Shown here: positions 11,617 to 49,124 of the stretch, in pieces
How positions within the stretch are numbered: position 1 is the stretch's first letter
Layout of the letters: each line of letters begins with the position of its first letter
Source: a virus
Taxonomy: Duplodnaviria; Heunggongvirae; Uroviricota; Caudoviricetes
Virus record (IMG/VR): IMGVR_UViG_3300013105_000002
Coordinates: 1 to 64,000 of that record
Strand: one strand, 5' to 3'
DNA length: 64,000 nt
Notes under the pieces: model-generated
The model's input: only the letters and a program-made list of their open reading frames with translations
The model's database searches: none
Told to the model about the DNA's origin: nothing
Position numbers and translations under genes: made by a program

Positions 11617-11642
11617 CCGGGTTCGTATGGTATACTGGCTCT

Positions 11643-13240: not shown

Positions 13241-13246
13241 TGTGGT

Positions 13247-26390: not shown

Positions 26391-26445
26391 ATACCCCGGG
26401 GGTATGGTGTTTTCTATACTCTTCTTTGGTATACACTGGGGGTAT
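26391..26445 (+). repeat. two operator-type palindromes without promoter (ATACCCCGGGGGTAT 26391-26405; ATACACTGGGGGTAT 26431-26445)
   Basis: same ATACCC-N-GGGTAT family as downstream array. Confidence 0.6.
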
Positions 26446-26462
26446 ACACCTACCGGCGATAG

Positions 26463-26514
26463 ATACCCCGAAGGGTATCTATGGACTTGACACGTCTTTA
26501 CAGACTGATAGTCT
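26463..26514 (+). promoter_or_regulatory. operator + promoter P1 (leaderless gene 26521)
   Basis: op 26463-26478; -35 TTGACA 26487-26492; -10 TAGTCT 26509-26514; ATG 6 nt downstream. Confidence 0.6.
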
Positions 26515-26520
26515 TCTCTC

Positions 26521-27102
26521 ATGACAACAAACACCACGCCCCACACGAACCACATCCTTGCGGCATACCTGCGAGCATCCGAGGACGACCGTGCCTTTGG
26601 TATCGCTTGGTACCCCGCCGCTCGTGCCCTTGCTGAGAATCTTCTACCTGAGGACGTGAGCACCGCCGCAGGTGTTCTTGCTGCCATGTCTCCCATGACG
26701 TCATGGCCCGAGAACGTCAAGCGCGCGACTGTCGCCATCATGGGTGGCAAGGTCTCGCACACTGGCCCGAACGTTGACAAGGTTCTGCGCATCCTGTCCG
26801 GTGAGCACCCGCTCGACGTGCTGTCCGGTCCCAAGACTCGCGCGTTCTACCTCAACATCATGGGAATCGACAGTGACGAGACGGTCACTGTGGACAGACA
26901 CGCTATCGACGTGGCATGCGGTAATGTCCTCTCGGACTCCGACCGTGCCGGTGCCATCCGTGGCAAGGCAGGCTATGGTAAGGTCGCCGGTATGTACCGT
27001 GAGGCTGCAAGCGTTATCGGAATCACCCCGTGTGCCCTACAGGCCGTTGTTTGGGTGTACTGGCGGCGAAACGTTGCTCAGGCTTTCCACGGTGACGCGT
27101 GA
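26521..27102 (+). CDS. hypothetical protein
   Basis: 193-aa GC-rich ORF. Confidence 0.55.
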   Translation: MTTNTTPHTNHILAAYLRASEDDRAFGIAWYPAARALAENLLPEDVSTAAGVLAAMSPMTSWPENVKRATVAIMGGKVSHTGPNVDKVLRILSGEHPLDVLSGPKTRAFYLNIMGIDSDETVTVDRHAIDVACGNVLSDSDRAGAIRGKAGYGKVAGMYREAASVIGITPCALQAVVWVYWRRNVAQAFHGDA

Positions 27103-27234
27103 GGCTTGACACAAAAATCATTGCGGGGCTAGTGATCATGCTTGCCACTAGCCCCGTATGGTTTCCCATAGCGGTATTTTTCTACCTACTAGCACAGTGA
27201 GGTAGGTGGGCGCAAGCCCACCGGCCTTACATTT

Positions 27235-27305
27235 GTACCCCGAGGGTATTAGATACACCGGGGGTATGTGTAGGGCTTGACGCCCGGTAGGTACTCGGGT
27301 AATGT
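27235..27305 (+). promoter_or_regulatory. two operators + promoter P2 (drives ORF-less transcript)
   Basis: ops 27235-27249, 27253-27267; -35 TTGACG 27277-27282; -10 TAATGT 27300-27305. Confidence 0.55.
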
Positions 27306-27311
27306 TGTCCT

Positions 27312-27685
27312 TGTTGGAAGAGACCGAGGCACACAAGCGGTGAGAGTCCGTTATTCCAACGCACTACCGGAGTGGATAGCAAGTCGCTGCTTGGCTTGCA
27401 AGGACGAAACTCCACTAGGGTTGACTTTAAATCAGCCCCTTTGATTTGTGAATAGAGAGAGTCCACGACTCAGACACAAGCCTCTCATGGCGAGCCGTCA
27501 ATGATTTAGACACCACGCTACTAGTGACACGTTCCATGGAACACGTCCACGCCTCTGACGTTCTCTATTAAACGTTGTATCCGAATGCACGCATCCGTGA
27601 TAACATGACCAATGTCTCTCTCTAGGGTAGGTCTGATCAACCTACCGGCCCCGAGCGCAATGCATGGCGCTCGGGGTCTCATATT
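27312..27685 (+). ncRNA. candidate ~375-nt noncoding RNA (ncRNA-1)
   Basis: promoter P2 to strong terminator (ggccccgagcgc/gcgctcggggtc 27647-27678 + U tail); no ORF >11 aa; multiple hairpins incl. GNRA-looped stems. Confidence 0.5.
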
Positions 27686-27694
27686 GTCATCCAT

Positions 27695-27745
27695 ATACAC
27701 TGGGGGTATCTAGACTCTTGACATGAGCGCTGGTAGGCATAGACT
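27695..27745 (+). promoter_or_regulatory. operator + promoter P3
   Basis: op ATACACTGGGGGTAT 27695-27709; -35 TTGACA 27718-27723; -10 TAGACT 27740-27745. Confidence 0.55.
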
Positions 27746-27751
27746 GAGGAT

Positions 27752-27949
27752 ATGAAATCACCACGAAGAGCAATCATCTACAGCCACGGGCTACGCCCTG
27801 CATTTGACAAGCGCAAGTACAGCGATGACAAGAATCAGGCGCGGCGTGCTGCGAAGGGCGGTGTGCCTTGTGAGAAGTGTGGCAGGGTATACAAAGACCC
27901 CAACAGAAAGCACAACTCCGATCCCAAGAACAAGACGCCATGCCTTTGA
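27752..27949 (+). CDS. hypothetical basic protein
   Basis: 65 aa; CEKCG pair. Confidence 0.5.
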   Translation: MKSPRRAIIYSHGLRPAFDKRKYSDDKNQARRAAKGGVPCEKCGRVYKDPNRKHNSDPKNKTPCL

Positions 27950-27963
27950 GCATGGCCCCCTAT

Positions 27964-27993
27964 ATATCCCTAGGGTATGTCAGAGACTTGACA
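27964..27993 (+). promoter_or_regulatory. operator + -35 of promoter P4
   Basis: op ATATCCCTAGGGTAT 27964-27978; -35 TTGACA 27988-27993; -10 unclear. Confidence 0.4.
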
Positions 27994-28022
27994 GCCCTGA
28001 AGACACATGAGAGAGTATGCAT

Positions 28023-28178
28023 ATGAACAGGAACAAGCGGGCGCAGGCCCCCAAGCGAATCAACCGTCATGACTCTGCAATCGGTGACAAGCGCCGTGCG
28101 CGAAGTGGTCCGGTCATCCGAGGACAGCGTTTCGACAGGAACGATTTCCGCAACCAGAGCATGCGGGGTGAGTGGTGA
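28023..28178 (+). CDS. small basic protein (51 aa)
   Basis: ATG directly downstream of P4. Confidence 0.35.
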   Translation: MNRNKRAQAPKRINRHDSAIGDKRRARSGPVIRGQRFDRNDFRNQSMRGEW

Positions 28179-28336
28179 AGACTTTCGATCCTCTAGAGGT
28201 GACCCTCGTTTATGTCGATGTTCTTGGTACTGAGTACCGACAGAGTGCTGCCGACATTGTGGAAGTTGGAACCCTCATCGATCCTGACACCGGCGACGAT
28301 ATGGAACTCGTGCGAGTCGAAGTTCCCAACAACTAG
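28175..28336 (+). CDS. small acidic protein (53 aa)
   Basis: GTGA overlap; ends before next operator. Confidence 0.35.
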   Translation: MKTFDPLEVTLVYVDVLGTEYRQSAADIVEVGTLIDPDTGDDMELVRVEVPNN

Positions 28337-28366
28337 CAGATTGGCCCTTCGGGGTCAAGCCCCAAT

Positions 28367-28447
28367 ATACCCTGAGTGTATGTCTTGGAGGTATATACCC
28401 TAGGGGTACCAAACCGTATTGACACACCCCCGGCATCCCTGTAATGT
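28367..28447 (+). promoter_or_regulatory. two operators + promoter P5
   Basis: ops 28367-28381, 28395-28409; -35 TTGACA 28419-28424; -10 TAATGT 28442-28447. Confidence 0.55.
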
Positions 28448-28453
28448 TTGAGT

Positions 28454-28550
28454 TGTTGGAGAGAGCAACGGTGAACCAAAGAGTGTGCTTCAAGTCTGGC
28501 ACCGGATTGGGAAAGGGCACTCTCTCCAACTCAGAAAGTTTCTTAGCACA
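28454..28550 (+). ncRNA. structured RNA element (ncRNA-2 or long 5' leader of Lsr2-like gene)
   Basis: 5' TTGTTGGAGAGAG pairs with downstream CTCTCTCCAAC; 5' end paralogous to ncRNA-1; no ORF. Confidence 0.4.
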
Positions 28551-28555
28551 ATCGC

Positions 28556-28584
28556 TTGACACTCTGGTCTACATGGATTAGAGT
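28556..28584 (+). promoter_or_regulatory. promoter P6 (no operator) TTGACA-17-TAGAGT
   Basis: -35 28556-28561, -10 28579-28584; RBS GAAAGGA then ATG 28639. Confidence 0.5.
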
Positions 28585-28638
28585 ACGTAGTACCGGGAAA
28601 GAGACACACGGTCTCTCCCAAACGAAAGGACAACCATC

Positions 28639-29025
28639 ATGGCTTCCAAGCGCATCGCCAACCCGACCGAGGTCCGCACGTGGGCTGCCGCCAACCTCGC
28701 CACCATCGACGGGCTCCCCGAGGGCTACCGCCTCGGTGACCGGGGTCAGTTCCCGCCCGCCGTCATCACCGCCTTCAACAAGGCGCACAAGAACGTCAAG
28801 TACGTGCGTGGCGCGTTCGTCAACAAGACGGCGGTCAAGTTCACCCGCGTGACCGACAAGGGCCGCAAGGTGCCCGGTGTGGCTCACATCGACACCACGA
28901 AGGTCCGTGAGGCTGCCCGTGAGGCCGGTCTGGCGCTCCCGTCCAAGGGCCGTCTTCCGCAGGCCGTGAAGGTCGCCTACGCGCAGGGTCCGGACGCCCT
29001 GAAGGCGCTTGCCGCCACGGTCTGA
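28639..29025 (+). CDS. Lsr2-like DNA-binding protein with two tandem Lsr2-type C-terminal domains
   Basis: VRTWAAANL..LGDRGQFPPAVITAF and VREAAREAGLALPSKGRLPQAVKVAY resemble Lsr2 DBD (RGRIPADVIDAY). Confidence 0.65.
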   Translation: MASKRIANPTEVRTWAAANLATIDGLPEGYRLGDRGQFPPAVITAFNKAHKNVKYVRGAFVNKTAVKFTRVTDKGRKVPGVAHIDTTKVREAAREAGLALPSKGRLPQAVKVAYAQGPDALKALAATV

Positions 29026-29033
29026 AGGCCGCA

Positions 29034-29057
29034 GGGCCTCCCCTCCGGGGGAGGCCC
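29034..29057 (+). terminator. hairpin terminator
   Basis: gggcctcccc tcc ggggaggccc. Confidence 0.55.
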
Positions 29058-29075
29058 TAGCCTTTCGTCTATCAC

Positions 29076-29128
29076 ATACCCCAAGGGTATCCCATCGGAG
29101 TTGACAGGCTACTGTGAGCGTGTAGACT
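29076..29128 (+). promoter_or_regulatory. operator + promoter P7
   Basis: op ATACCCCAAGGGTAT 29076-29090; -35 TTGACA 29101-29106; -10 TAGACT 29123-29128. Confidence 0.6.
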
Positions 29129-29160
29129 GAACCTATCAACCCACGACATTGGAGGAACCA

Positions 29161-29586
29161 ATGAGCAAGCACTACCCCGGAACTCCCAAGGCATGGGCCG
29201 CCGAGCGCGGTCTCTGTGGCACGGGACGTGGACGCCCGCCCAAGGCTGCCATGGATGCCATTGCGGCTGCCATCGCTGACGGTTGGACGTTCGGCGGTGG
29301 GTCGGTGGTGGTGAACAAGTCCGCTGAGCCCACGGGGCCGGTGGTGGAGAAGCCCAAGGACGACAGCCCCAAGGGTGAGGCTGAAGGCGTGAACGTCTAC
29401 GCTGACGCGTTCTACCGCTATGACCGTGAGCAGAAATTCTACTATGAGCATGAGGGCAAGCGTCACGAGTGCTCTGGTCGCACGGCTTGCATGGGCTGTG
29501 GATACAGTCTCATTGGACACACGTGCAACGAAATGGTAGGCTTGACCAAGCACGGACAGAAAGTCATCAAGCCGCTGGGAGAGTGA
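29161..29586 (+). CDS. protein with N-terminal Lsr2-type DNA-binding motif and C-terminal Cys cluster
   Basis: RBS GGAGG; KAWAAERG..GRGRPPKAAMDAIAAA; C-terminal HECSGRTACMGCG. Confidence 0.55.
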   Translation: MSKHYPGTPKAWAAERGLCGTGRGRPPKAAMDAIAAAIADGWTFGGGSVVVNKSAEPTGPVVEKPKDDSPKGEAEGVNVYADAFYRYDREQKFYYEHEGKRHECSGRTACMGCGYSLIGHTCNEMVGLTKHGQKVIKPLGE

Positions 29587-29589
29587 CAT

Positions 29590-29862
29590 ATGGCACGCAT
29601 GAGCATTGAACAGAAACTCGCTGACAAGGTGGTGGATGCCACTCTGAGAGCAGACTTCGATGCGCCTCGGTTTGCCTACATCATGAACCGTTGTGGATGG
29701 AAGATTCAGGAAGTTCTGTTTCAGGTGGTGCTCGGGATGATCCGTCACTGGGCTATTGACCTAGAGACGGACAACACCAAGGGTGGAGCCGATGAGTATT
29801 ACCGGCTGACCATCAAGGCGAAAATCCTGCAGGATGCCATCGACCGTAACAAAATCGAGTGA
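29590..29862 (+). CDS. hypothetical protein
   Basis: 90-aa ORF. Confidence 0.5.
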   Translation: MARMSIEQKLADKVVDATLRADFDAPRFAYIMNRCGWKIQEVLFQVVLGMIRHWAIDLETDNTKGGADEYYRLTIKAKILQDAIDRNKIE

Positions 29863-29911
29863 GATTAGGGAGTCATCGTAAGAGGTGGCTCCCTACCTCA
29901 TTGGGGTATGC

Positions 29912-29990
29912 ATACCCTTGGGGTATTTGTATTGATACATACCCCGGGGGTATTGTCAGGGCTTGACGGATGACTCTGAGGTGATAGTCT
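29912..29990 (+). promoter_or_regulatory. operators + promoter P8 (leaderless)
   Basis: ops 29912-29926, 29939-29953 (plus inverted copy 29903-29917); -35 TTGACG 29963-29968; -10 TAGTCT 29985-29990; ATG 6 nt later. Confidence 0.6.
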
Positions 29991-29996
29991 TTAGCC

Positions 29997-30509
29997 ATGA
30001 ACCTCACAGACGCACAGATGCTCGCACGCACGGCTCTCGACGCCCACGGTCTCACCGACAAGGGTTGGCGAGTCGAGTGGGACAATGCCAAGAGGCGCAA
30101 CGGCTCTGCCTCATCCTCTGCTCGTGTCATCACCCTGTCGGCACCGCTGACGCACCTGAAGACACCTGAAGAGATGCGTCAGACCATTGGTCACGAAATC
30201 GCTCACGCCCTTGTTGGTACCCAGCACGGACACGGGCCGGTGTGGAAGGCCAAGATGCGGGAGTTGGGCCTAGTCGTGTCCACTACGGCAGTCCTCTCGG
30301 AAGAGACACGCGGCCAGATTGCCACGCTGAGGAACTACACCCTCACGTGCGTGGTGAACGGCAAGAGTCTCGGACACCTTGACAGGATCGTCAAGCAGCG
30401 CAAGGTCAGGCGCGGGGGCGGGTATGTCCTACGTACCTATGGCGCTCGTGTCTGCAAGTGCCACGGGGAGCCTGTCCTCTACAACGGCAAGTCATGGGAC
30501 GATATCTGA
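29997..30509 (+). CDS. SprT-like zinc metallopeptidase
   Basis: GHEIAHAL (HExxH) + downstream H/G; C-terminal CKCHG zinc ribbon. Confidence 0.7.
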   Translation: MNLTDAQMLARTALDAHGLTDKGWRVEWDNAKRRNGSASSSARVITLSAPLTHLKTPEEMRQTIGHEIAHALVGTQHGHGPVWKAKMRELGLVVSTTAVLSEETRGQIATLRNYTLTCVVNGKSLGHLDRIVKQRKVRRGGGYVLRTYGARVCKCHGEPVLYNGKSWDDI

Positions 30510-30538
30510 AAGGCAAGGCCCTACGGGGTCTAACCGTT

Positions 30539-30590
30539 ATACCCTGAGGGTAATTCCACCATTGACACCCGCGCCGGTAGGTGGTTGAAT
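30539..30590 (+). promoter_or_regulatory. operator + promoter P9
   Basis: op 30539-30553; -35 TTGACA 30562-30567; -10 TTGAAT 30585-30590. Confidence 0.5.
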
Positions 30591-30622
30591 AGCACTATCA
30601 ACCAAACGTCCTAGGAGGACAC

Positions 30623-30805
30623 ATGAAGACGGTAACTCTCTACTTCGTTGCACAGCCCGAGCCTGATGGCAGCACGCCGAACCCGAGCCTCTTCTACCTG
30701 AACGAAGACTACGACTTCGTGTCTCAGGAAGTTCCTCAGGGTGAGCGTGTCTACAGCGTCGGCGCGATCCTCATGGATGACACTGTGGAGGAAGTTGCCA
30801 ACTGA
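30623..30805 (+). CDS. hypothetical protein
   Basis: RBS AGGAGG; 60 aa. Confidence 0.5.
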   Translation: MKTVTLYFVAQPEPDGSTPNPSLFYLNEDYDFVSQEVPQGERVYSVGAILMDDTVEEVAN

Positions 30806-30825
30806 GCCCTTCGGGGTTTAGCCAC

Positions 30826-30875
30826 ATACCCTGAGGGTATGTCTCACTTGACAAGCGCCGGTGGATGCGTAGACT
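30826..30875 (+). promoter_or_regulatory. operator + promoter P10 (leaderless)
   Basis: op ATACCCTGAGGGTAT 30826-30840; -35 30848-30853; -10 TAGACT 30870-30875. Confidence 0.6.
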
Positions 30876-30881
30876 AGAGGC

Positions 30882-31097
30882 ATGGACATGGAAATCATTG
30901 ACACAGTACAGGCCCACACGTTGGAGCCGGGAGACACCATCGAGTACATCGATGACGAGGGACGCCGCTCACTTCAAGAAATCAAGAGCGCCGAAGACCT
31001 CGGAGACACCATCCGTGTGCAGTTGGAAGACTACGACGACGTAGACCTCTATGCTGATGGTGAGCAGAACATCTACGGATATCCTGCCGAAGACTGA
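30882..31097 (+). CDS. hypothetical acidic protein
   Basis: 71-aa ORF. Confidence 0.5.
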   Translation: MDMEIIDTVQAHTLEPGDTIEYIDDEGRRSLQEIKSAEDLGDTIRVQLEDYDDVDLYADGEQNIYGYPAED

Positions 31098-31162
31098 CAG
31101 GAACGCGGGGGAGTCGGAGAAATTCGGCTCCCCCAAACCTGTATCGTAAAGCCCATGAACAT

Positions 31163-31263
31163 TTCCCGAGGGTATCTACATACCCCAAGGGTATAGGATC
31201 ACACAAAACAAATACCCCATGAGGTATGGATGGGCTTGACAGGTCTCTGGGAACTGATAGTCT
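31163..31263 (+). promoter_or_regulatory. three operators + promoter P11 (leaderless)
   Basis: ops 31163-31175, 31180-31194, 31212-31227; -35 TTGACA 31236-31241; -10 TAGTCT 31258-31263. Confidence 0.6.
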
Positions 31264-31269
31264 TTACCT

Positions 31270-31635
31270 ATGAACGAACGAGACAAGCCGATGACCGGCG
31301 AGCACGCAGCAATCATCTTCGCGCAGGGCCTCACCGCCAAGTTCGCAGACAGCGAGTGGCCGTACAACCCTGAGTTCTCCGCTGATCTTTCGGGCAAGAA
31401 GTACATCCGAATCGTCAATGAGGGCAACCCTCACCCCGAGGACCAGACAACGAACCTGTACCGTCGTCAGCGCTCGTGCCACGCGTACGTGGACCGCGAG
31501 ACGGGCGAGGTGTACAAGTCCTCAGGATGGAAGGGTGGACCGGCCAAGGTCAACGGCAAGGCCGATGCACGATACCCCAACGTTTGGGAGGCTCTGGTCA
31601 AGGCTGACCGGAACGGAGGATACCTGTACAAGTAA
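31270..31635 (+). CDS. hypothetical protein
   Basis: 121-aa ORF. Confidence 0.55.
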   Translation: MNERDKPMTGEHAAIIFAQGLTAKFADSEWPYNPEFSADLSGKKYIRIVNEGNPHPEDQTTNLYRRQRSCHAYVDRETGEVYKSSGWKGGPAKVNGKADARYPNVWEALVKADRNGGYLYK

Positions 31636-31653
31636 CAGGTGTCAAGCAGGGAA

Positions 31654-31767
31654 ATACCCTTCGGGGTATTTTCTTGTTCTTACCCTATACCCTAGGGGTA
31701 TGCCTTGAAACGAAATACCCTTGGGGTATGGGATGGTGTTGACAGCCCTGCTCCCATGGTGTTTACT
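31654..31767 (+). promoter_or_regulatory. three operators + promoter P12 (leaderless)
   Basis: ops 31654-31669, 31687-31701, 31715-31729; -35 TTGACA 31739-31744; -10 TTTACT 31762-31767. Confidence 0.55.
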
Positions 31768-31773
31768 AGAGAT

Positions 31774-32037
31774 ATGAACAAGCAGACGCGCAAAGCGTAC
31801 CTCACTGACCTTGGTGCCCGTATCTACAATGCGGACACCTCCACCGAACTCATCGTGATCGCCACGGACATGGCAGATGCCGCGTCCATGGGTCGCTCGG
31901 AGACATGGAAGGGTGCTTGCACGATGGCAGGACGACGCACCCTCGCCAAGTTCAACATCGGTGTCCCGGTGCCATTCAAGGACGTTGGTGCCGTGGTCCA
32001 GCAAGGCTACGATGCCATGGTGGCAGCCAACAAGTAA
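31774..32037 (+). CDS. hypothetical protein
   Basis: ORF 31705 start overlaps promoter; ATG 31774 used. Confidence 0.5.
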   Translation: MNKQTRKAYLTDLGARIYNADTSTELIVIATDMADAASMGRSETWKGACTMAGRRTLAKFNIGVPVPFKDVGAVVQQGYDAMVAANK

Positions 32038-32042
32038 GCCCG

Positions 32043-32064
32043 CTAGGCCCCTCCGGGGGCCTAG
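32043..32064 (+). terminator. hairpin terminator
   Basis: ctaggcccc tccg ggggcctag. Confidence 0.5.
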
Positions 32065-32079
32065 CCTTATTAGCATGAG

Positions 32080-32131
32080 ATACACCGGGGGTATGTTCTA
32101 GGCTTGACACACACTACCAGACTGATAGTAT
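32080..32131 (+). promoter_or_regulatory. operator + promoter P13 (leaderless)
   Basis: op ATACACCGGGGGTAT 32080-32094; -35 32104-32109; -10 TAGTAT 32126-32131. Confidence 0.6.
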
Positions 32132-32137
32132 TTACCC

Positions 32138-32371
32138 ATGAGCCAAATGACATTCCACGAGCAGTTCGGTGAAGTTTCTGTCGCACAACTCCGTGCATAC
32201 AAGGCGCACAACGTCTCTCAGTCCGACCACGACTCCCTCGCCACGTTCTACTCCGAGGGCGGCCACGAGTCCATCACAAAGGCGGTGAAAGACCCACGCA
32301 ACCACGTGCCCGGAACGAGGTTGTTCTCGTGGCACACGTGGTACTCCAACACCGAGCGTTACAACTGGTGA
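32138..32371 (+). CDS. hypothetical protein
   Basis: 77-aa ORF. Confidence 0.5.
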   Translation: MSQMTFHEQFGEVSVAQLRAYKAHNVSQSDHDSLATFYSEGGHESITKAVKDPRNHVPGTRLFSWHTWYSNTERYNW

Positions 32372-32406
32372 ACACACCGGCCCTACGGGGTCCGTGTGTA
32401 TACCCC

Positions 32407-32458
32407 GGGGGTAATTAGAGTGTTGACCACCAGCGCCGGTAGGTGTAGAGTAAAGGTA
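32407..32458 (+). promoter_or_regulatory. operator + promoter P14 (drives ORF-less transcript)
   Basis: op 32407-32421; -35 TTGACC 32430-32435; -10 TAGAGT 32453-32458. Confidence 0.5.
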
Positions 32459-32464
32459 TTGAAG

Positions 32465-32606
32465 GGGATGGAAGGACGCAAGGTGCAAATCCCTGCTAGC
32501 AATTGAACCCTTCGACGCAAGACATGTATGTGACAGTGCATGCCATAGAGACTAGTCATCTCGCCGGGGCCTGAGCCTGACTAACTCAGGTCTCTTGCTT
32601 TTGCCA
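32465..32606 (+). ncRNA. candidate ~140-nt noncoding RNA (ncRNA-3)
   Basis: no + strand ORF; ends in hairpin cctgag...ctcagg + tctcttgcttttg. Confidence 0.4.
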
Positions 32607-32611
32607 TACAC

Positions 32612-32758
32612 ATACCCTAGGGGTAAATTCGGCTCCTAGAATCGCTTATCGTAAACGGTCTGTTCGCTATCCCCCAAGGGTGCACATACCCTCGTGGGAT
32701 TTGATATACCCTTGGGGTATGCCAGACAGGTTGACACGTCCCGGCATGTGAGTAGACT
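32612..32758 (+). promoter_or_regulatory. operators + promoter P15
   Basis: ops 32612-32626, 32686-32700, 32706-32720; -35 32731-32736; -10 TAGACT 32753-32758; leader with RBS GAGGAAA. Confidence 0.55.
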
Positions 32759-32795
32759 TGGACCATCAGCCAAACCGAGTAGTGAGGAAACTACA

Positions 32796-33065
32796 ATGGC
32801 ACGTCAACTCCGAGTCATCGCCCGCGAGATCGTGAAGGACTACGCAGACAAGGGCAAGCCGGTCACGCCGTTTGCCAAGCCGTACGTGGACGCGATGCTC
32901 ACGATGGACAGCGTGGCCGACACCTACGGAGCCGAGAGTGGCGAGTACGTCGTCCTCTACGGGCTGCACAACCTCTCCGGATGGCGAGGCGAGAAGGCAC
33001 GCGAGGTGAAGGCCGAACTGAAGGCTCTTGTCTCCGAGCATCGCAGGGCGAACCCGCGCCGGTGA
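32796..33065 (+). CDS. hypothetical protein
   Basis: ATG 32796 after RBS; 89 aa. Confidence 0.5.
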   Translation: MARQLRVIAREIVKDYADKGKPVTPFAKPYVDAMLTMDSVADTYGAESGEYVVLYGLHNLSGWRGEKAREVKAELKALVSEHRRANPRR

Positions 33066-33070
33066 GTGGA

Positions 33071-33090
33071 GGGGACTTCGGTCCCCTTTT
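33071..33090 (+). terminator. rho-independent terminator
   Basis: ggggac ttcg gtcccc tttt. Confidence 0.6.
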
Positions 33091-33104
33091 CTCATACCCT
33101 GCCA

Positions 33105-33156
33105 ATACCCCGAGGGTATAGTTTGGTGTTGACAGGTCGGGCGGTAGGAGTAGACT
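33105..33156 (+). promoter_or_regulatory. operator + promoter P16 (leaderless)
   Basis: op ATACCCCGAGGGTAT 33105-33119; -35 33129-33134; -10 TAGACT 33151-33156. Confidence 0.6.
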
Positions 33157-33162
33157 GAGAAC

Positions 33163-33375
33163 ATGAAAACGATCAATGGATGCGCAGTCATCGCCCACCG
33201 TCCCTACGGCAACACCCTTCCGTCTGAGGGTTTCGTGATCCTCGCAGTCAAGACGCTCGGTGACTCTTACGAGTACATCACTGCTGTTGTCTCCACGCTC
33301 GATGACAGGGAGTGGTTCTGGGGTCACTACATCACCTCGCTAGAGGAAGCCACGTCCGACTACTTCTCTCGCTGA
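33163..33375 (+). CDS. hypothetical protein
   Basis: 70-aa ORF. Confidence 0.5.
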   Translation: MKTINGCAVIAHRPYGNTLPSEGFVILAVKTLGDSYEYITAVVSTLDDREWFWGHYITSLEEATSDYFSR

Positions 33376-33405
33376 GAGGGGAGGCCCCACGGGGTCTTTC
33401 CATAT

Positions 33406-33457
33406 ATACCCTGAGGGTATGTCAACGCATTGACAGCCCTCCAATCCTTGATAGGAT
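33406..33457 (+). promoter_or_regulatory. operator + promoter P17 (leaderless)
   Basis: op 33406-33420; -35 33430-33435; -10 TAGGAT 33452-33457. Confidence 0.55.
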
Positions 33458-33463
33458 GTAGTC

Positions 33464-33631
33464 ATGTACTACGACATGGACGACCACCGTTGCTTCGACT
33501 GTGATGGGCGCTACTGCCCACCGGGCCAGTGCCTCCGTACCGAGACCTCCGTGTGGGTCGTGGGTCACGGTTGGACCGACCCCGAGACTGCCAAGGGCTT
33601 TGAGGCTCTGGGAAGGACGGTGCAGTGGTGA
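33464..33631 (+). CDS. small Cys-rich protein (55 aa)
   Basis: CFDCDGRYCPPGQC; below track cutoff. Confidence 0.4.
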   Translation: MYYDMDDHRCFDCDGRYCPPGQCLRTETSVWVVGHGWTDPETAKGFEALGRTVQW

Positions 33632-33649
33632 GGCTTCGGCCTTACACAT

Positions 33650-33701
33650 ATCCCCTAAGGGTATGTCTAGGTGTTGACACCTGACCTGTAGGGTGTAGAC
33701 T
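33650..33701 (+). promoter_or_regulatory. operator + promoter P18
   Basis: op ATCCCCTAAGGGTAT 33650-33664; -35 33674-33679; -10 TAGACT 33696-33701. Confidence 0.55.
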
Positions 33702-33708
33702 TAGGGAC

Positions 33709-33918
33709 ATGAAGACGATCACAGTGACCATGACCGGCGAGGCTTTCGAGTCCTACAGCGTGGACGGGGCCTACTTCCCCGAGTTCAAGAACGACGAGAG
33801 CGGCGAGTGGGATGCCATTCCTGCCGTCTTCGTCGGACGCCCCATCATGCACCGTGGACAGGTGGGAGACGCAACGATCCTCTACGGGCTCGACGTTCGG
33901 AAGGTGACAATGCAGTAA
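33709..33918 (+). CDS. hypothetical protein
   Basis: 69-aa ORF. Confidence 0.5.
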   Translation: MKTITVTMTGEAFESYSVDGAYFPEFKNDESGEWDAIPAVFVGRPIMHRGQVGDATILYGLDVRKVTMQ

Positions 33919-33950
33919 AGGGCAGGCCCCTCCGGGGGTCACTCCCATAT

Positions 33951-34003
33951 ATACCCTCGGGGTAAGTCTGAGACTTGACATGCATGCCCTAGGGGTACAT
34001 AAT
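33951..34003 (+). promoter_or_regulatory. operator + promoter P19 (leaderless); half-operator inside spacer
   Basis: op 33951-33965; -35 33975-33980; -10 CATAAT 33998-34003. Confidence 0.5.
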
Positions 34004-34009
34004 TGGAAC

Positions 34010-34213
34010 ATGAACACGATCCGAGACCTCATCCTCACCGCCAACGGTGGCAGTATGCACACGGCCACCCTGAACACGCTCACCATGCTTGTGTTCGCGG
34101 TCCTCTTCATCGCTGCCGGTGTTGCTTGCGCCTACGTCGTGGCAGCCCTCACGGCACAGCACAAGGCTCACATGCACACCGACAAGGTGACCGTCATCAC
34201 CGACGCACAGTGA
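34010..34213 (+). CDS. small membrane protein
   Basis: ATG 34010; one TM helix. Confidence 0.5.
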   Translation: MNTIRDLILTANGGSMHTATLNTLTMLVFAVLFIAAGVACAYVVAALTAQHKAHMHTDKVTVITDAQ

Positions 34214-34229
34214 CCCCGGAAGGGGCTAT

Positions 34230-34281
34230 ATACCCTTAGGGTATGTTTGAGGTTTGACACAATGCCCCAAACTGATATGCT
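34230..34281 (+). promoter_or_regulatory. operator + promoter P20
   Basis: op ATACCCTTAGGGTAT 34230-34244; -35 34254-34259; -10 TATGCT 34276-34281. Confidence 0.55.
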
Positions 34282-34309
34282 TGTCCTACCAACCACGGAA
34301 GGGGACACA

Positions 34310-34516
34310 ATGTCTCGCAAGGATTACGAAGCGCTCGCGGCAGTCATCGCGGGTGAGGTGGCATGTGCGGCAGGTAACAAGGACAAACTGCGCACGTCCT
34401 CCAACATCGCTCGGAGCATGGCTGACGTGTTCCACCGTGGAAACGAGCGTTTCGACCGTGTGCGCTTTTACAAGGCTTGCGGACTGGACATGACGGGCGG
34501 TTTCCCCGACGTGTGA
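34310..34516 (+). CDS. hypothetical protein
   Basis: RBS GGAAGGGGA + ATG 34310. Confidence 0.5.
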   Translation: MSRKDYEALAAVIAGEVACAAGNKDKLRTSSNIARSMADVFHRGNERFDRVRFYKACGLDMTGGFPDV

Positions 34517-34521
34517 GAGCG

Positions 34522-34545
34522 TGGCCCCTACGGGGGCCATTGCTT
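34522..34545 (+). terminator. rho-independent terminator
   Basis: tggcccc tacg ggggcca + ttgctttt. Confidence 0.6.
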
Positions 34546-34556
34546 TTACCTAGCAT

Positions 34557-34608
34557 ATACCCTCGGGGTATATATAGGCTTGACAGTGCACCTAGGGTGT
34601 GATTGAAT
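34557..34608 (+). promoter_or_regulatory. operator + promoter P21
   Basis: op ATACCCTCGGGGTAT 34557-34571; -35 34580-34585; -10 TTGAAT 34603-34608. Confidence 0.55.
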
Positions 34609-34644
34609 TGTCTTCTCAACCAGAACACCTCCCAAGGAGACACC

Positions 34645-34785
34645 ATGATCGTCGAAATCCGCAACAACGGTCTCATCATCGACTACGTGGTAATGCCTAA
34701 CTTCCGAGCGGCTGTCATGTTCACCCAGAGATTCAACCGAGTCTCCACAAACAAGGGTTTCACCCAGAGGGCGGTGATCGCCTGA
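34645..34785 (+). CDS. hypothetical protein (46 aa)
   Basis: RBS AAGGAGA + ATG 34645. Confidence 0.4.
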   Translation: MIVEIRNNGLIIDYVVMPNFRAAVMFTQRFNRVSTNKGFTQRAVIA

Positions 34786-34806
34786 GCCCTTCGGGGCTTT
34801 CCCCAT

Positions 34807-34858
34807 ATACACTCGGGGTATATCAATGGCTTGACACGAGGCCGGTATTTGATATGCT
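34807..34858 (+). promoter_or_regulatory. operator + promoter P22 (drives ORF-less transcript)
   Basis: op ATACACTCGGGGTAT 34807-34821; -35 34831-34836; -10 TATGCT 34853-34858. Confidence 0.55.
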
Positions 34859-34864
34859 TGTTAT

Positions 34865-34968
34865 ATGAGGTCGGAGGGAGAGCGGACCAAAAAAGTCTCA
34901 CCGTCAGAGAAGACGCAAATCGCACAGTGAGTCTAGGCTGCAAGGGTCTAGGCTCACTTGTTTGTCTA
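34865..34968 (+). ncRNA. candidate ~105-nt noncoding RNA (ncRNA-4)
   Basis: no ORF; 3' hairpin gtgagtctaggc...ctaggctcac 34927-34957 + TTGTTTG. Confidence 0.45.
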
Positions 34969-34972
34969 TAGA

Positions 34973-35023
34973 ATACCCTAGGGGTATACAAGTGGCTTGA
35001 CACATGCCGCCGATCTGATAGAG
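34973..35023 (+). promoter_or_regulatory. operator + promoter P23 (leaderless)
   Basis: op ATACCCTAGGGTAT 34973-34986; -35 34996-35001; -10 TAGAGT 35018-35023. Confidence 0.55.
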
Positions 35024-35029
35024 TTCTCA

Positions 35030-35113
35030 CATGGGAATCATCATCGTGTCACTGCTCGCAGCAATCTTTTGGCGCATCGCCATCAGCCCGATCATCGACA
35101 GTTTCAACAAGTA
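35030..35113 (+). CDS. tiny hydrophobic peptide (27 aa)
   Basis: ATG 6 nt after -10; followed by strong terminator. Confidence 0.25.
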
Positions 35114-35120
35114 GGGCGTG

Positions 35121-35148
35121 AAAGGCCCGGAGAAATCCGGGCCTTTTG
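35121..35148 (+). terminator. rho-independent terminator
   Basis: aaggcccgga gaaa tccgggcctt + ttgcg. Confidence 0.65.
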
Positions 35149-35175
35149 CGTGTCATCGTAAAAGGCCCAATTGGT

Positions 35176-35190
35176 ATACCCCAAGGGTAC
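35176..35190 (+). repeat. orphan operator copy ATACCCCAAGGGTAC
   Basis: no -35 downstream; sits before bidirectional terminator. Confidence 0.5.
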
Positions 35191-35206
35191 AAAACGGGCA
35201 TGAGAA

Positions 35207-35235
35207 GACCCTAGGTGCGCCGCTCACCTAGGGTC
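35207..35235. terminator. bidirectional terminator (perfect 11-bp stem)
   Basis: gaccctaggtg cgccgct cacctagggtc between convergent + and - genes. Confidence 0.6.
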
Positions 35236-35245
35236 TCTCTGGGTC

Positions 35246-35398
35246 TCAGGCCATGGACACCTCACGCTTCCACGTGGAGCGCTCACGGCGCTTGGCGATC
35301 CGTCGTGCCATCTTACGGGCGCTGGGCGCGTCACCGCAGCAAGAGCAGTCACGACCACCGGGGCCGTAGGGGCAGGACTTGCCAATCATGCGAGCCAT
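35246..35398 (-). CDS. small basic Cys-rich protein (50 aa), only minus-strand gene in the early array
   Basis: MARMIGKSCPYGPGGRDCSCCGD...RRIAKRRERSTWKR; own promoter. Confidence 0.45.
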   Translation of the reverse strand: MARMIGKSCPYGPGGRDCSCCGDAPSARKMARRIAKRRERSTWKREVSMA

Positions 35399-35437
35399 GA
35401 TTTTCTCTCTCTGTAGTTGTTTTTTCTTGCTGGGATA

Positions 35438-35467
35438 AACATATGACAGATGGCCGGTGGTGTCAAG
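35438..35467 (-). promoter_or_regulatory. minus-strand promoter CTTGACA-17-TATGTT
   Basis: revcomp of 35461-35467 = -35; revcomp of 35438-35443 = -10; divergent from P25. Confidence 0.5.
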
Positions 35468-35475
35468 CCGATCCA

Positions 35476-35555
35476 ATACCCCAAGGGTAAATCATCAGAC
35501 AGATACCCCTAGGGTATGTTTTTGGCTTGACGATGTTTCCGCATTCCCGTAGTGT
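35476..35555 (+). promoter_or_regulatory. two operators + promoter P25
   Basis: ops 35476-35490, 35503-35517; -35 TTGACG 35527-35532; -10 TAGTGT 35550-35555. Confidence 0.5.
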
Positions 35556-35601
35556 TTCTCTTGTCAGGAGGAAACGCCTCCCCCACACAAAAGGATTTGA
35601 A

Positions 35602-35895
35602 ATGTCGCTCTCCCTCGCCGGAACCAAGTCCACGGTTGTCTCGCCCGCCTCGCACGGCATCGACAACTACGGCCCCGAGGTGCAGGCAATCACCTTCAAG
35701 TACAACGGGGTCGCCTACACGATCAACCGTCGTGGCAACTCCAACGTCAAGGGCTTCCACTCCTTCCGGAACAACACGTACACGGTCACCAACGGCACCG
35801 ACCGTGTGTCGAACATGATCGTCAACCGTTTCGACTTCGTGTCCATCCTCTACACTGACGGTCGAATCGAGTCGAACGACTACACCGCTCGATGA
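35602..35895 (+). CDS. hypothetical protein
   Basis: RBS AAAGGA + ATG 35602; 97 aa. Confidence 0.5.
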   Translation: MSLSLAGTKSTVVSPASHGIDNYGPEVQAITFKYNGVAYTINRRGNSNVKGFHSFRNNTYTVTNGTDRVSNMIVNRFDFVSILYTDGRIESNDYTAR

Positions 35896-35900
35896 GAGGC

Positions 35901-35918
35901 AGGCCCCTTCGGGGGCCT
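35901..35918 (+). terminator. hairpin terminator
   Basis: aggcccc ttcg ggggcct. Confidence 0.55.
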
Positions 35919-35940
35919 AGCCTTTCGCCCATGACATACC

Positions 35941-35955
35941 CTCGGGGTATGTAGT
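35941..35955 (+). repeat. operator copy ATACCCTCGGGGTAT (weak promoter downstream)
   Basis: -35-like TTGTGT 35964-35969 only. Confidence 0.4.
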
Positions 35956-35993
35956 CTATTGTGTTACTGTCCGGTAGGGTATAGGGTGGTCAC

Positions 35994-36155
35994 ATGACCA
36001 AATACAAGTATGAGATTTTCCACGCTGTCAGTGGCGGCTTTTTCACGGGTCACCTTCACACGGTGTACTCCAACTCCAACGATGCCAACCTGTGGTGCGA
36101 GACGTTCGAACGTCAGGGCTACACGGGCCTCTACATGATCCGCAGGGAGGTCTAG
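35994..36155 (+). CDS. hypothetical protein (53 aa)
   Basis: + strand ORF; overlapping minus-strand ORF 35964-36239 judged spurious. Confidence 0.4.
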   Translation: MTKYKYEIFHAVSGGFFTGHLHTVYSNSNDANLWCETFERQGYTGLYMIRREV

Positions 36156-36183
36156 CACAAAGACCCTTCGGGGTCCATTAACA

Positions 36184-36236
36184 ATTACCCTCGGGGTATG
36201 TGTAGGGCTTGACATGATCCCCAGAACTGATAAACT
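36184..36236 (+). promoter_or_regulatory. operator + promoter P26 (leaderless)
   Basis: op 36184-36199; -35 36209-36214; -10 TAAACT 36231-36236. Confidence 0.55.
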
Positions 36237-36242
36237 CATGCC

Positions 36243-36461
36243 ATGAACGAAAACGAGATCACCCGCATCGTGGCCGACGCTCTGCGTGAGGCTTACGCCA
36301 TCAACACCGCTCAGTTCAAGGACGAGAAGGTGGAGCGTGAGACCGTGGACAGCGTGCTGTATGACGTTGCCTACAACATCGCTCAGGAGGTATGGCCCAC
36401 GCGCAGCCCTGAGTCTCCGGTCATGCCAGACGAGTGGTTGGAGGCGATCAAGGGTCGCTGA
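36243..36461 (+). CDS. hypothetical protein
   Basis: 72-aa ORF. Confidence 0.5.
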   Translation: MNENEITRIVADALREAYAINTAQFKDEKVERETVDSVLYDVAYNIAQEVWPTRSPESPVMPDEWLEAIKGR

Positions 36462-36466
36462 GGATA

Positions 36467-36487
36467 GGCTCCCACGGGAGCCTTTTC
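36467..36487 (+). terminator. rho-independent terminator
   Basis: ggctccc ac gggagcc + ttttcc. Confidence 0.6.
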
Positions 36488-36501
36488 CTTTACCCTACCG
36501 C

Positions 36502-36554
36502 ATACCCTAGGGGTATATATGGGGCTTGACATGGAGTCGGGCGGCAGGTAATGT
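36502..36554 (+). promoter_or_regulatory. operator + promoter P27
   Basis: op ATACCCTAGGGGTAT 36502-36516; -35 36526-36531; -10 TAATGT 36549-36554. Confidence 0.55.
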
Positions 36555-36589
36555 TCTTCTTGTCAGAACATCGATGAAAGGAAACTGAC

Positions 36590-36736
36590 ATGTACGAGCA
36601 CCCCGACCACGGCATCATGACTCTGGAAGAAGTTTGGATGACCGACGCTGGTGTGAAGTACGGTCGATTCGTGACCGTCAAGTGGGGAACGTCCATCAAC
36701 ATGCCCATCTGCATGGTGCACAAGTTGCCATCATGA
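36590..36736 (+). CDS. hypothetical protein (48 aa)
   Basis: RBS AAAGGA + ATG 36590. Confidence 0.4.
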   Translation: MYEHPDHGIMTLEEVWMTDAGVKYGRFVTVKWGTSINMPICMVHKLPS

Positions 36737-36753
36737 TGTAAAGGAAATCCGGT

Positions 36754-36778
36754 CAGCCCTTCGGGGTTGGCTGTTTTT
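36754..36778 (+). terminator. rho-independent terminator
   Basis: cagccc ttcg gggttg + ctgttttt. Confidence 0.6.
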
Positions 36779-36790
36779 CCGGTCAAGCCT

Positions 36791-36843
36791 ATACCCTTGG
36801 GGTATATCAGTACGCTTGACATGCCCCGATTTTCTGATTAGGC
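36791..36843 (+). promoter_or_regulatory. operator + promoter P28
   Basis: op ATACCCTTGGGGTAT 36791-36805; -35 36816-36821; weak -10 TTAGGC 36838-36843. Confidence 0.45.
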
Positions 36844-36881
36844 TGGGGCTACGCCCAAGCAACACCGACTAAGGAGACACC

Positions 36882-37151
36882 GTGAACGTCACCCCGAAGA
36901 CCGCCGCTCGCCAGATCGTCCTCGCCCGTGCGGAGCGTGCTGCAAAGCCCGTTTACACGTCCGAGACGGGCGTGGTGCGTCCGGTTCGCGTGGAGGCCGC
37001 TCCCATCGTGGAGGACGACCCGCACTGCTTCGTTTGTGGTCGGCACACGGATCACTTCGCAGAGCACGACGACATGGTGGAGGCTGGCACGGCCACCTAC
37101 GGCGAGGACGGGAGTGTCTACCCTGTCCCGTGGAACTTCATCCTCGGGTGA
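36882..37151 (+). CDS. hypothetical protein
   Basis: RBS AAGGAGA + GTG 36882; CFVCG..H pair. Confidence 0.5.
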   Translation: MNVTPKTAARQIVLARAERAAKPVYTSETGVVRPVRVEAAPIVEDDPHCFVCGRHTDHFAEHDDMVEAGTATYGEDGSVYPVPWNFILG

Positions 37152-37156
37152 GGCGA

Positions 37157-37178
37157 GGGGCCGAAAGGCCCCTTTCTT
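37157..37178 (+). terminator. rho-independent terminator
   Basis: ggggcc gaaa ggcccc + tttctt. Confidence 0.65.
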
Positions 37179-37190
37179 CATGTGTGTGAC

Positions 37191-37243
37191 ATACCCTCGG
37201 GGTATCCCAAAGTATTGACAAAAGCGCCGGTAGCAAATAGGCT
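37191..37243 (+). promoter_or_regulatory. operator + promoter P29
   Basis: op ATACCCTCGGGGTAT 37191-37205; -35 37215-37220; -10 TAGGCT 37238-37243. Confidence 0.55.
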
Positions 37244-37278
37244 ATGCGTAGCAAGCCAAACAGAAGAGAGAAGGAACA

Positions 37279-37491: not shown

Positions 37492-37550
37492 GAAGAAGGC
37501 CCGAAGAAATTCGGGTCTTTTTTCTTTTTATCGTAAGCGACCATCATGAC

Positions 37551-47301: not shown

Positions 47302-47324
47302 GCTATTTATGCTATACTTTCAAC

Positions 47325-49117: not shown

Positions 49118-49124
49118 TTTCATT

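Follow-up and report, generated by a model that had tools for sequence, protein, structure and literature searches.

The 64,000-nucleotide stretch of Caudoviricetes DNA analyzed here (the window; positions 1 to 64,000 of IMG/VR record IMGVR_UViG_3300013105_000002) carries an array of ∼29 short cassettes on its + strand (26391..37634), each made up of a palindrome, a −35 and a −10 hexamer, a leaderless or leadered coding sequence, and a GC-rich hairpin. We consider it very likely that this array is an early module, in 16 of whose cassettes host RNA polymerase would start at the A of the ATG and the mRNAs would be translated without a leader. The original prediction listed 12 array sites with an ATG 6 to 7 nt after the −10; all 12 are borne out, and the true number is 16. 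The same layout at 13247, 47325, 49125, and 51552 is exactly as it claimed, and its mixture of leaderless and SD-led (Shine-Dalgarno-led) genes is real: 10 other cassettes have leaders of 22 to 48 nt. Its description of the leaderless organization as widespread holds for the 11-kb array, where 16 of the 26 first genes are of this type, but not for the remaining ∼53 kb, where ∼8 of ∼85 genes are.

Anchoring an alignment on TTGAC within 26300-37800 defined 29 near-consensus σ70-type promoters on the + strand (26.39 to 37.62 kb) that fit TTGAC(A/G/C)-16/17-TAnnnT; their consensus type is TTGACA, 16 to 17 nt, and TAGACT, frequently accompanied by an extended TGn. At 16 of the 29 (55%), the −10 hexamer is separated from an ATG by 6 nt (7 nt once, at 33709), which places the −10 at −12 to −7 counted from the A of the start codon; the binomial probability of at least 16 of 29 is ∼4e−18. 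By the definition of a TA-led gene (TAnnnT ending 5 to 8 nt before the start), 12 of the 16 are strict matches and 4 are near matches, with a distance of 6 nt in 15 and 7 nt in 1. The composite motif TTGAC-N17-19-TANNNT-N6-ATG occurs 12 times in the window, compared to 0.04 expected from 100 shuffles; all occurrences are on the + strand, and 11 lie within the array. Considering open reading frames (ORFs) of at least 40 codons, 10 array ATGs have TANNNT at offset 6, and only 1 has it at offsets 0 to 5 and 8 to 11 combined. All 16 units have a C or T immediately ahead of the ATG (P ∼9e−6), and +1 is always A, which is the pyrimidine/purine dinucleotide typical of transcription start sites (TSSs). 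Spacers of 16 nt between the −35 and −10 hexamers are found in 12 of the 16 leaderless units versus 3 of the 13 other promoters (Fisher p=0.009).

The 16 leaderless-type units, all on the + strand, are given here as −35 hexamer, spacer length, −10 hexamer, intervening bases, and ATG with its position. Unit 1 (26487..27102; TTGACA-16-TAGTCT-tctctc-ATG, 26521) encodes a DUF7178 protein of 193 amino acids (aa). It is followed by unit 2 (27718..27949; TTGACA-16-TAGACT-gaggat-ATG, 27752), encoding a basic 65-aa protein, and unit 3 (27988..28336; TTGACA-17-GAGAGT-atgcat-ATG, 28023), encoding a 51-aa protein and an overlapping second ORF (28172-28336). The products of units 2 and 3 (27752-27949 and 28023-28178) are very basic and rich in Arg and Lys, making them candidate nucleic acid binders. 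Unit 4 (29963..30509; TTGACG-16-TAGTCT-ttagcc-ATG, 29997) encodes a 170-aa SprT-like protein; unit 5 (30848..31097; TTGACA-16-TAGACT-agaggc-ATG, 30882), a 71-aa protein; and unit 6 (31236..31635; TTGACA-16-TAGTCT-ttacct-ATG, 31270), a 121-aa DUF7717 protein. Unit 7 (31739..32037; TTGACA-17-TTTACT-agagat-ATG, 31774; 87 aa) has a weak −10. Units 8 (32104..32371; TTGACA-16-TAGTAT-ttaccc-ATG, 32138; 77 aa) and 9 (33129..33375; TTGACA-16-TAGACT-gagaac-ATG, 33163; 70 aa) precede unit 10 (33430..33631; TTGACA-16-TAGGAT-gtagtc-ATG, 33464), whose 55-aa product is Cys rich. Unit 11 (33674..33918; TTGACA-16-TAGACT-tagggac-ATG, 33709; 69 aa) is the one with 7-nt spacing, and unit 12 (33975..34213; TTGACA-17-CATAAT-tggaac-ATG, 34010) encodes a 67-aa membrane protein. 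Unit 14 (34997..35114; TTGACA-16-TAGAGT-tctcac-ATG, 35031) encodes a hydrophobic 27-aa peptide, and the last two are unit 15 (35959..36155; TTGTGT-17-TAGGGT-ggtcac-ATG, 35994; 53 aa) and unit 16 (36209..36461; TTGACA-16-TAAACT-catgcc-ATG, 36243; 72 aa). Unit 13 (34831..34958; TTGACA-16-TATGCT-tgttat-ATG, 34865) is leaderless in type but of uncertain coding status: its ORF begins at the predicted +1, runs for 21 codons, and enters a 14-bp hairpin (34926-34958), which is followed by a T-rich tract. The segment 34865-34958 could be a leader peptide/attenuator or a small RNA (sRNA) instead of a gene. Most array products have no Pfam match.

Several lines of evidence indicate that these ATGs are genuine start codons. 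In 11 of the 16 units, the −10 hexamer contains a TAG that stops the reading frame 9 nt upstream of the ATG, making an upstream start impossible there, and 13 of the 16 lack any upstream in-frame start codon. An SD scan found no SD sequence at functional spacing for any of the 16, whereas AAGGAG, GGAGG, or a 4-nt core precedes most of the window's ∼85 other genes at a distance of 4 to 9 nt. The leaderless ORFs have a third-position G+C content (GC3) of 0.63 to 0.83, above that of the second position, and a codon-likelihood gene caller blind to promoters settled on the same start in 13 of the 16, as well as at 47325 and 49125. For the DUF7178 and SprT-like proteins, the Pfam matches start at the N terminus.

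The layout is also conserved. A protein search with DUF7178 returned 59 homologues, almost all of 182 to 221 aa, and we compared seven metagenomic contigs whose DUF7178 proteins share 39 to 75% aa identity; a DUF7178-based search of IMG/VR for related loci yielded nothing. In all seven relatives, the DUF7178 gene is preceded by TTGAC(A/T/C), 17 to 18 nt, a −10 hexamer, and exactly 6 nt before the ATG. The −10 hexamers themselves vary (TAGTCT, TAGATT, TAGGAT, CAGTAT, TAGACT, CATACT, and TAGGTT), and the 6-nt spacers are all different. In a tblastn survey of the array proteins, unit 3 orthologues were leaderless with 6-nt spacing in four of four relatives and SprT-like (unit 4) orthologues were leaderless in three of three. 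Unit 5 orthologues kept the 6-nt spacing in both contigs that have one (L013 and L016), with weak −10 hexamers, and the single unit 12 orthologue (L013) is leaderless. One switch of state was seen, in L016, where the unit 8 (32138) orthologue is leadered and has AGGAG. The SD-led genes were SD led in every one of ∼20 orthologue pairs, and the Lsr2-like gene is leadered in all six relatives compared. Since the layout is kept in orthologues despite sequence divergence, the leaderless or leadered state is a gene-specific, conserved property and not a chance juxtaposition. The leaderless share per array, scored by the same criteria, ranges from ∼8% (L015) through ∼24 to 36% (L016, L013, L008, and L011) to 55% here. 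The low-scoring contig L015 (JGI 3300068053, 95-16570), from a more distant relative, has 62% GC and at least 36 TTGACA-17/18-(T/C)A(C/T)ACT promoters in 16 kb, nearly all with leaders that start from (T)ACCAAC or ACACCA; its DUF7178 gene, encoding a protein 39% identical to ours, is nonetheless leaderless. Another contig, L014 (JGI 3300047676; 12,738 bp), mirrors itself around ∼6.4 kb, with DUF7178, SprT-like, and Lsr2 genes present twice in inverted order, most likely an assembly artifact.

The 10 leadered protein-coding cassettes, also on the + strand, carry an SD (GGAGG/AGGAGG, AAGGAG, or AGGA) 3 to 8 nt before the start codon. The Lsr2-like protein is encoded by the first of them (28556..29025), which has a TAGAGT −10, a ∼48-nt leader, SD AAAGGA, and ATG at 28639. 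Leaders of 26 nt beginning with ATCAACC occur in a two-gene unit (29101..29862; SD GGAGG, ATG 29161, second gene at 29590) and in 30562..30805 (SD AGGAGG, ATG 30623). Next come a unit with a 31-nt leader (32731..33065; SD GAGGA, ATG 32796), two units within 34254..34785 (ATGs 34310 and 34645; SD GGAAGGGG and AAGGAG), a unit whose ∼40-nt leader has a 5′ hairpin (35527..35895; SD AAAGGA, ATG 35602), and three units within 36526..37491 (ATG 36590, GTG 36882, and ATG 37279). The predicted +1 region of leadered cassettes is conserved as A(T/C)CA(A/G)C(C) with a pyrimidine at −1 (29135, 30597, 32765, and 34288; also in L013 and L016), which is one or two bases away from the ATGAAC of leaderless cassettes. 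Judging from this resemblance, the promoter module apparently reaches as far as about +6, and either class may change into the other, as the 32138 orthologue in L016 exemplifies.

The mechanism that we propose from the sequence is as follows. Each cassette would open with a strong promoter for a housekeeping σ of the HrdB/SigA type; in 16 cassettes, transcription by host RNA polymerase would begin on the A of the start codon, which lies 7 nt past the −10 and has a pyrimidine before it. The resulting mRNA would start with its AUG, and the ribosome would bind this 5′-terminal AUG directly, without SD/anti-SD pairing, by a leaderless route of translation that is efficient in actinobacteria; the other 10 protein-coding cassettes would be translated from their 22- to 48-nt leaders via the SD. 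Such a mechanism would account for the layout of one gene, one promoter, and one terminator, because a leaderless start codon has to stand at the very 5′ end of an RNA and every such gene therefore requires a separate promoter.

Across the array, the copies of promoter, palindrome, and terminator are very much alike, as would be expected if a promoter-plus-ATG cassette had been duplicated and spread by recombination, its geometry being inherited and not independently maintained; the similar predicted +1 regions of leaderless (ATGAAC) and leadered (ATCAACC) cassettes likewise suggest a common cassette reaching past +1. However, the 6 nt between −10 and ATG differ in nearly every unit, orthologues at 39 to 75% aa identity preserve the spacing in spite of diverging hexamers, and the choice between leaderless and leadered is conserved gene by gene. 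We regard descent by duplication as a very improbable explanation of the geometry, and a duplicated cassette would give leaderless mRNAs all the same. We give equally little credence to the proposal that translation does not begin at 5′-terminal AUGs, whether because the starts lie elsewhere or because of read-through or of internal or SD-independent initiation. The tblastn alignments to orthologues begin at residue 1 of the leaderless ORFs, most of these ORFs have no SD, a GC-rich hairpin insulates each unit, and the −10 TAG closes the upstream frame; in favor of other starts, some units have a second ATG nearby, and the one at 30888, which the automatic caller chose, has GAGG 7 nt upstream. 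As for the polymerase, a phage-modified or phage-encoded enzyme or σ factor might follow another start-site rule, such that the ATG is not +1. This would be likeliest at late sites (47325, 49125, 51552, and 54413), which have a −10 but no −35 hexamer. The array promoters, though, match the consensus of housekeeping promoters, hexamers and spacer length alike, extended −10 (TGn) motifs account for −35-less host promoters, and no σ or RNA polymerase domain was found among the proteins scanned. Such a phage-modified or phage-encoded enzyme strikes us as highly unlikely.

Some observations do weigh against leaderless initiation throughout the array. Four of the 16 units have an imperfect hexamer: a −10 of GAGAGT (28023), TTTACT (31774), or CATAAT (34010), or a −35 of TTGTGT (35994). 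Some units have their second in-frame ATG within 2 to 7 codons of the first, and the ORFs of 21 and 27 aa (34865 and 35031) may not be genes. The window covers half of the genome, and a phage σ factor could lie outside it. Among cultured phages, only 1 of 22 genes in the terminal repeat of Peebs is of the leaderless type, the rest having a leader with a 5′ hairpin and an SD, and distant DUF7178 homologues are SD led in phages Sentinel, Caelum, and Pumpernickel. The Peebs repeat rules out the leaderless layout as a general trait of the family's terminal repeat, and the other three phages rule out DUF7178 as a gene that is leaderless everywhere; together they indicate that the trait is lineage specific.

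As to the phage itself, its sequence identifies it as a ∼131-kb virulent-type actinophage related to Stanwilliamsviridae. The ribonucleotide reductase (RNR; 43878-45809) is 57.7% identical to RNRs of cluster BE Streptomyces phages, which belong to this family, and the portal (49459-51090) is 59% identical to the portals of Muntaha, Wakanda, and Mildred21, all Stanwilliamsviridae. The gene order (glycosyltransferase, RNR, endolysin, large protein, small protein, portal, protease, and capsid) is that of Peebs and Muntaha, as is the position of a minus-strand ThyX block upstream of these core genes; shared core genes and gene order of this kind mark Stanwilliamsviridae (clusters BE-BK). An exact-protein look-up placed the window on a metagenomic contig of 131,368 bp (ENA ERZ27252505), a length that agrees with the genome size of this family (PMC5764925), whose members have ∼127 to 134 kb, ∼50% G+C, and many tRNAs. 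The window has ∼52% G+C overall (range, 49 to 57% GC) and seven tRNA genes within its first 15 kb (three Leu, two Thr, one Gly, and one His; 1572-1976, 11543-12090, and 15066-15211); no tmRNA was found in this half of the genome. A megablast search of 50,697 phage records returned no nucleotide match to the array. Resembling no described genus at the nucleotide level, the phage would represent a new genus at least, and its placement in the family is provisional.

An actinobacterial host, as the original prediction proposed, is well supported by the RNR and portal identities, the gene order, and the Lsr2-like gene within the array (ATG 28639); the last fits such a host because Lsr2-like regulators are widespread among actinophages (bioRxiv 10.1101/2024.02.16.580700). 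The same prediction saw in the leaderless layout a handle on host range. It does serve as a pointer at the phylum level, but a coarse one: Deinococcus-Thermus and further groups are rich in leaderless genes as well (PMC3160421), and the leaderless share varies from ∼8 to 55% even among related arrays.

The leaderless geometry closely resembles that of known actinobacterial genes. In Streptomyces lividans TK24, TSS mapping classed 17% of TSSs as leaderless; the leaderless promoters had a TAnnnT −10 in 93% and a purine at +1 in 97% of cases, a mean −10-to-TSS distance of 6.3 nt, and a mean −35/−10 spacer of 16.5 nt, compared to 17.4 nt for leadered promoters (PMC8079986). Both the array geometry and its shorter leaderless spacer agree with these data. 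More generally, a TA-like signal ∼10 bp before the start codon is the accepted in silico signature of leaderless genes, which are concentrated in Actinobacteria and Deinococcus-Thermus (PMC3160421). The array shares with the TA-led genes of Streptomyces and Mycobacterium a TAnnnT 6 to 7 nt before the ATG, the lack of an SD, and a purine at +1 (PMC8079986, PMC3160421, and PMC4633059). It differs in being phage borne and denser (55% of promoters leaderless within 11 kb versus 17 to 21% of host TSSs), in using only ATG for its leaderless genes where about one-third of host leaderless genes use GTG, and in its full-consensus −35, which is weak in host leaderless promoters.

Other phages offer partial parallels. 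Cluster O mycobacteriophages (Corndog and relatives), which are unrelated, have predicted leaderless mRNAs from SigA-like promoters and >30 copies of a 7-3-7 palindrome (PMC4351075). Only 3 of their 8 to 9 promoters are leaderless, compared to 16 of 29 in the array, and their palindrome (TGTTCGGNNNCCGAACA) is scattered genome-wide, whereas that of the array is phased 9 nt upstream of the −35s. For Adephagia of cluster K, a leaderless transcript is predicted for gene 90 (P90), and the SAS/ESAS inverted-repeat motifs of this cluster are tied to promoters and gene starts (PMC11373665); as in the array, repeat motifs stand at promoters, but motif and position differ and the leaderless case is a single one. 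The terminal-repeat modules of SPO1, T5, and cluster BE1 are, like the array, ∼10 to 13 kb long and composed of many small genes (PMC5764925), and the presence of an lsr2-like gene inside and of the ThyX block alongside is another likeness to cluster BE1 modules. The Peebs repeat genes differ from the array in lying on the opposite strand and in being almost all leadered, with a 5′ hairpin and an SD. The mRNA of λ cI made from PRM starts at its AUG, and its host translates leaderless mRNA poorly; cI is a single regulatory gene, not an array. We found no published description of this organization in Stanwilliamsviridae.

Several features suggest that the array is an early region. All cassettes terminate in a GC-rich hairpin with a tetraloop (terminator-like sites number 21, versus 7.9 expected), so that, except for two two-gene units, the genes are monocistronic. 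Strong early host-σ promoters and terminators are numerous in SPO1; the array has the same makeup of many small genes, each with a strong promoter of host-σ type and a terminator. GC3 is 0.73 in array genes versus 0.56 to 0.60 in the rest of the window (Mann-Whitney p=1.6e−10), a shift that might reflect adaptation of immediate-early genes to the tRNA pool of a high-GC host. At 11.2 kb, with its lsr2-like gene, the array abuts the minus-strand ThyX just as ThyX lies beside the direct terminal repeat (DTR) in Peebs; the DTR of BE1 phages is 10.7 to 11.5 kb long and includes an lsr2-like gene (PMC5764925). Two related contigs, L013 and L016, break 650 to 790 nt upstream of the array's first gene. 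By analogy, the array probably corresponds to the early region that cluster BE Streptomyces phages carry in their ∼11-kb terminal repeat.

The least explained feature of the array is its palindrome, ATACCC-n3/4-GGGTAT, of which there are 51 copies at up to 2 mismatches (for example, at 26463-26478, 29939-29953, 33105-33119, and 36502-36516); all 42 window copies with a 3-nt center lie within 26.39 to 37.62 kb. At 28 of the 29 promoters, a copy ends 7 to 10 nt (most often 9) before the −35 and is centered near −51. It sits past the terminator of the preceding cassette and ahead of the next start site. Being mostly untranscribed on this arrangement, it would more readily have a role at the DNA level. 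The half-site is TTACCC in L008, L010, and L013 and (A/T)TTCCC in L016, and L011 has a GGCCCCCCGGGGGGCC GC hairpin instead. Searches for the palindrome plus TTGACA gave only 4 single, unrelated matches in IMG/VR and 27 single matches in unrelated taxa among 596 Gb of bacterial and archaeal genomes, nothing comparable to the array; such scattered matches indicate neither a host regulon nor a clue to the host. A resemblance to the BldD box (TNAC-N5-GTNA) is ruled out by the half-site spacing. The simplest reading is that the palindrome is probably the operator of a phage-encoded, phage-specific regulator. A further-reaching version, in which the array is a concertedly evolving expression system, a phage factor bound to the −51 palindrome switches the whole block, half-sites have co-diverged between related phages, and leaderless use is adaptive, seems to us unlikely, if less so than the rival accounts above. 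If it were true, immediate-early proteins would be made without SD/anti-SD pairing, for example, while the phage itself or the defenses of its host impair canonical initiation, and the conserved gene-by-gene choice between leaderless and leadered would set the expression class.

Three consensus promoters have no credible ORF downstream (27300-27700, 28449-28555, and 32446-32600). Each has a TAnTGT −10, and their predicted transcripts share (C/G)TTGTTGGAG near the start; this conserved motif is also present in the leader at 22696-22735, and homologous stretches occur in L008 (5505 and 5880), L010 (11037), L013 (2403 and 2959), and L016 (1936). Rfam detected only tRNAs, both in the whole window and in a permissive run on 27250-28600, and the RNA fold of 28449-28555 was no better than that of shuffles (z = −0.97). 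Because BE1 phages carry a tmRNA, we considered one for the ∼400-nt noncoding stretch at 27300-27700; ARAGORN and Rfam were negative, which rules it out. These promoter-driven stretches are possible phage sRNAs. The sole antisense gene of the array is a Cys-rich 50-aa ORF (35246-35398, − strand) with a TTGACA-17-TATGTT promoter at 35466-35438 (− strand), flanked by palindrome copies at 35176 and 35476.

Outside the array, ∼8 of ∼85 genes in ∼53 kb are leaderless candidates (11643, 13247, 25848 [weak], 42803, 47325, 49125, 51552, and 54413). Each heads a transcription unit, none has an SD, and all eight have a pyrimidine at −1 and a purine at +1, but the offset signal is barely above background (3 to 5 versus ∼2), and nearly all remaining genes there are SD led. 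On the + strand, 11628..12011 (TGgTATACT-ggctct-ATG, 11643) lies between two tRNA-Thr genes and encodes 122 aa, and 13212..13657 (TTGACT-17-TATACT-tgtggt-ATG, 13247) encodes 136 aa. The glycosyltransferase gene (42791..43816, +; TAGGGT-acgcct-ATG, 42803) is a weaker candidate, its Peebs and Muntaha homologues being leadered. The four late candidates, all + strand, have no −35 hexamer and may depend on promoters of another class. Of these, 47310..49067 (580 aa; TGcTATACT-ttcaac-ATG, 47325) corresponds to Peebs gp220, which has TAATAT, 6 nt, and ATG, and 49109..49475 (116 aa; TGgTACAAT-tttcatt-ATG, 49125) corresponds to Muntaha gp19 (TACAAT) and Peebs gp219 (TATGAT), each with 6 nt before the ATG; the starts of the Muntaha and Peebs genes compared here are curated ones. 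The 444-aa prohead protease/scaffold gene (51536..52886; TGaTATTAT-tcataac-ATG, 51552) matches Muntaha gp22 (TATTAT, 6 nt, and ATG), while the Peebs homologue is leadered; finally, 54401..55267 (284 aa; TATAAT-taaaac-ATG, 54413) matches Peebs gp213, with TATAAT, 6 nt, and ATG.

The array has a practical consequence for annotation, since gene callers trained on SD sequences failed on this block. Automatic calls on the source contig (L007; ENA ERZ27252505) miss the genes at 27752, 33709, and 35994 and call opposite-strand ORFs instead (locus coordinates 10907-11017, 17147-17428, and 19444-19638, all on the − strand). At least five more genes are mis-started, at 30888, 31291, 31705, 32147, and 33980 in place of 30882, 31270, 31774, 32138, and 34010 (locus coordinates 14368, 14771, 15185, 15627, and 17460), and in L013 the automatic call puts the DUF7178 start 13 codons too far downstream. 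Given such miscalls, metagenomic actinophage proteomes will be systematically distorted where leaderless arrays occur.

The array is, in sum, an unusually dense and well-conserved example of a known actinobacterial expression mode in a new phage lineage. Taken together, the TAnnnT-N6-ATG spike, an Lsr2 gene, and relatedness to Streptomyces phages make a cheap host pointer, at the phylum level, that needs only sequence. The array is also a naturally occurring set of 29 strong promoter/terminator cassettes, compact and insulated, with matched leaderless and leadered versions, and a source of parts for Streptomyces synthetic biology. The conserved leaderless or leadered state of its genes makes it a test bed for comparing the two modes of initiation during infection.

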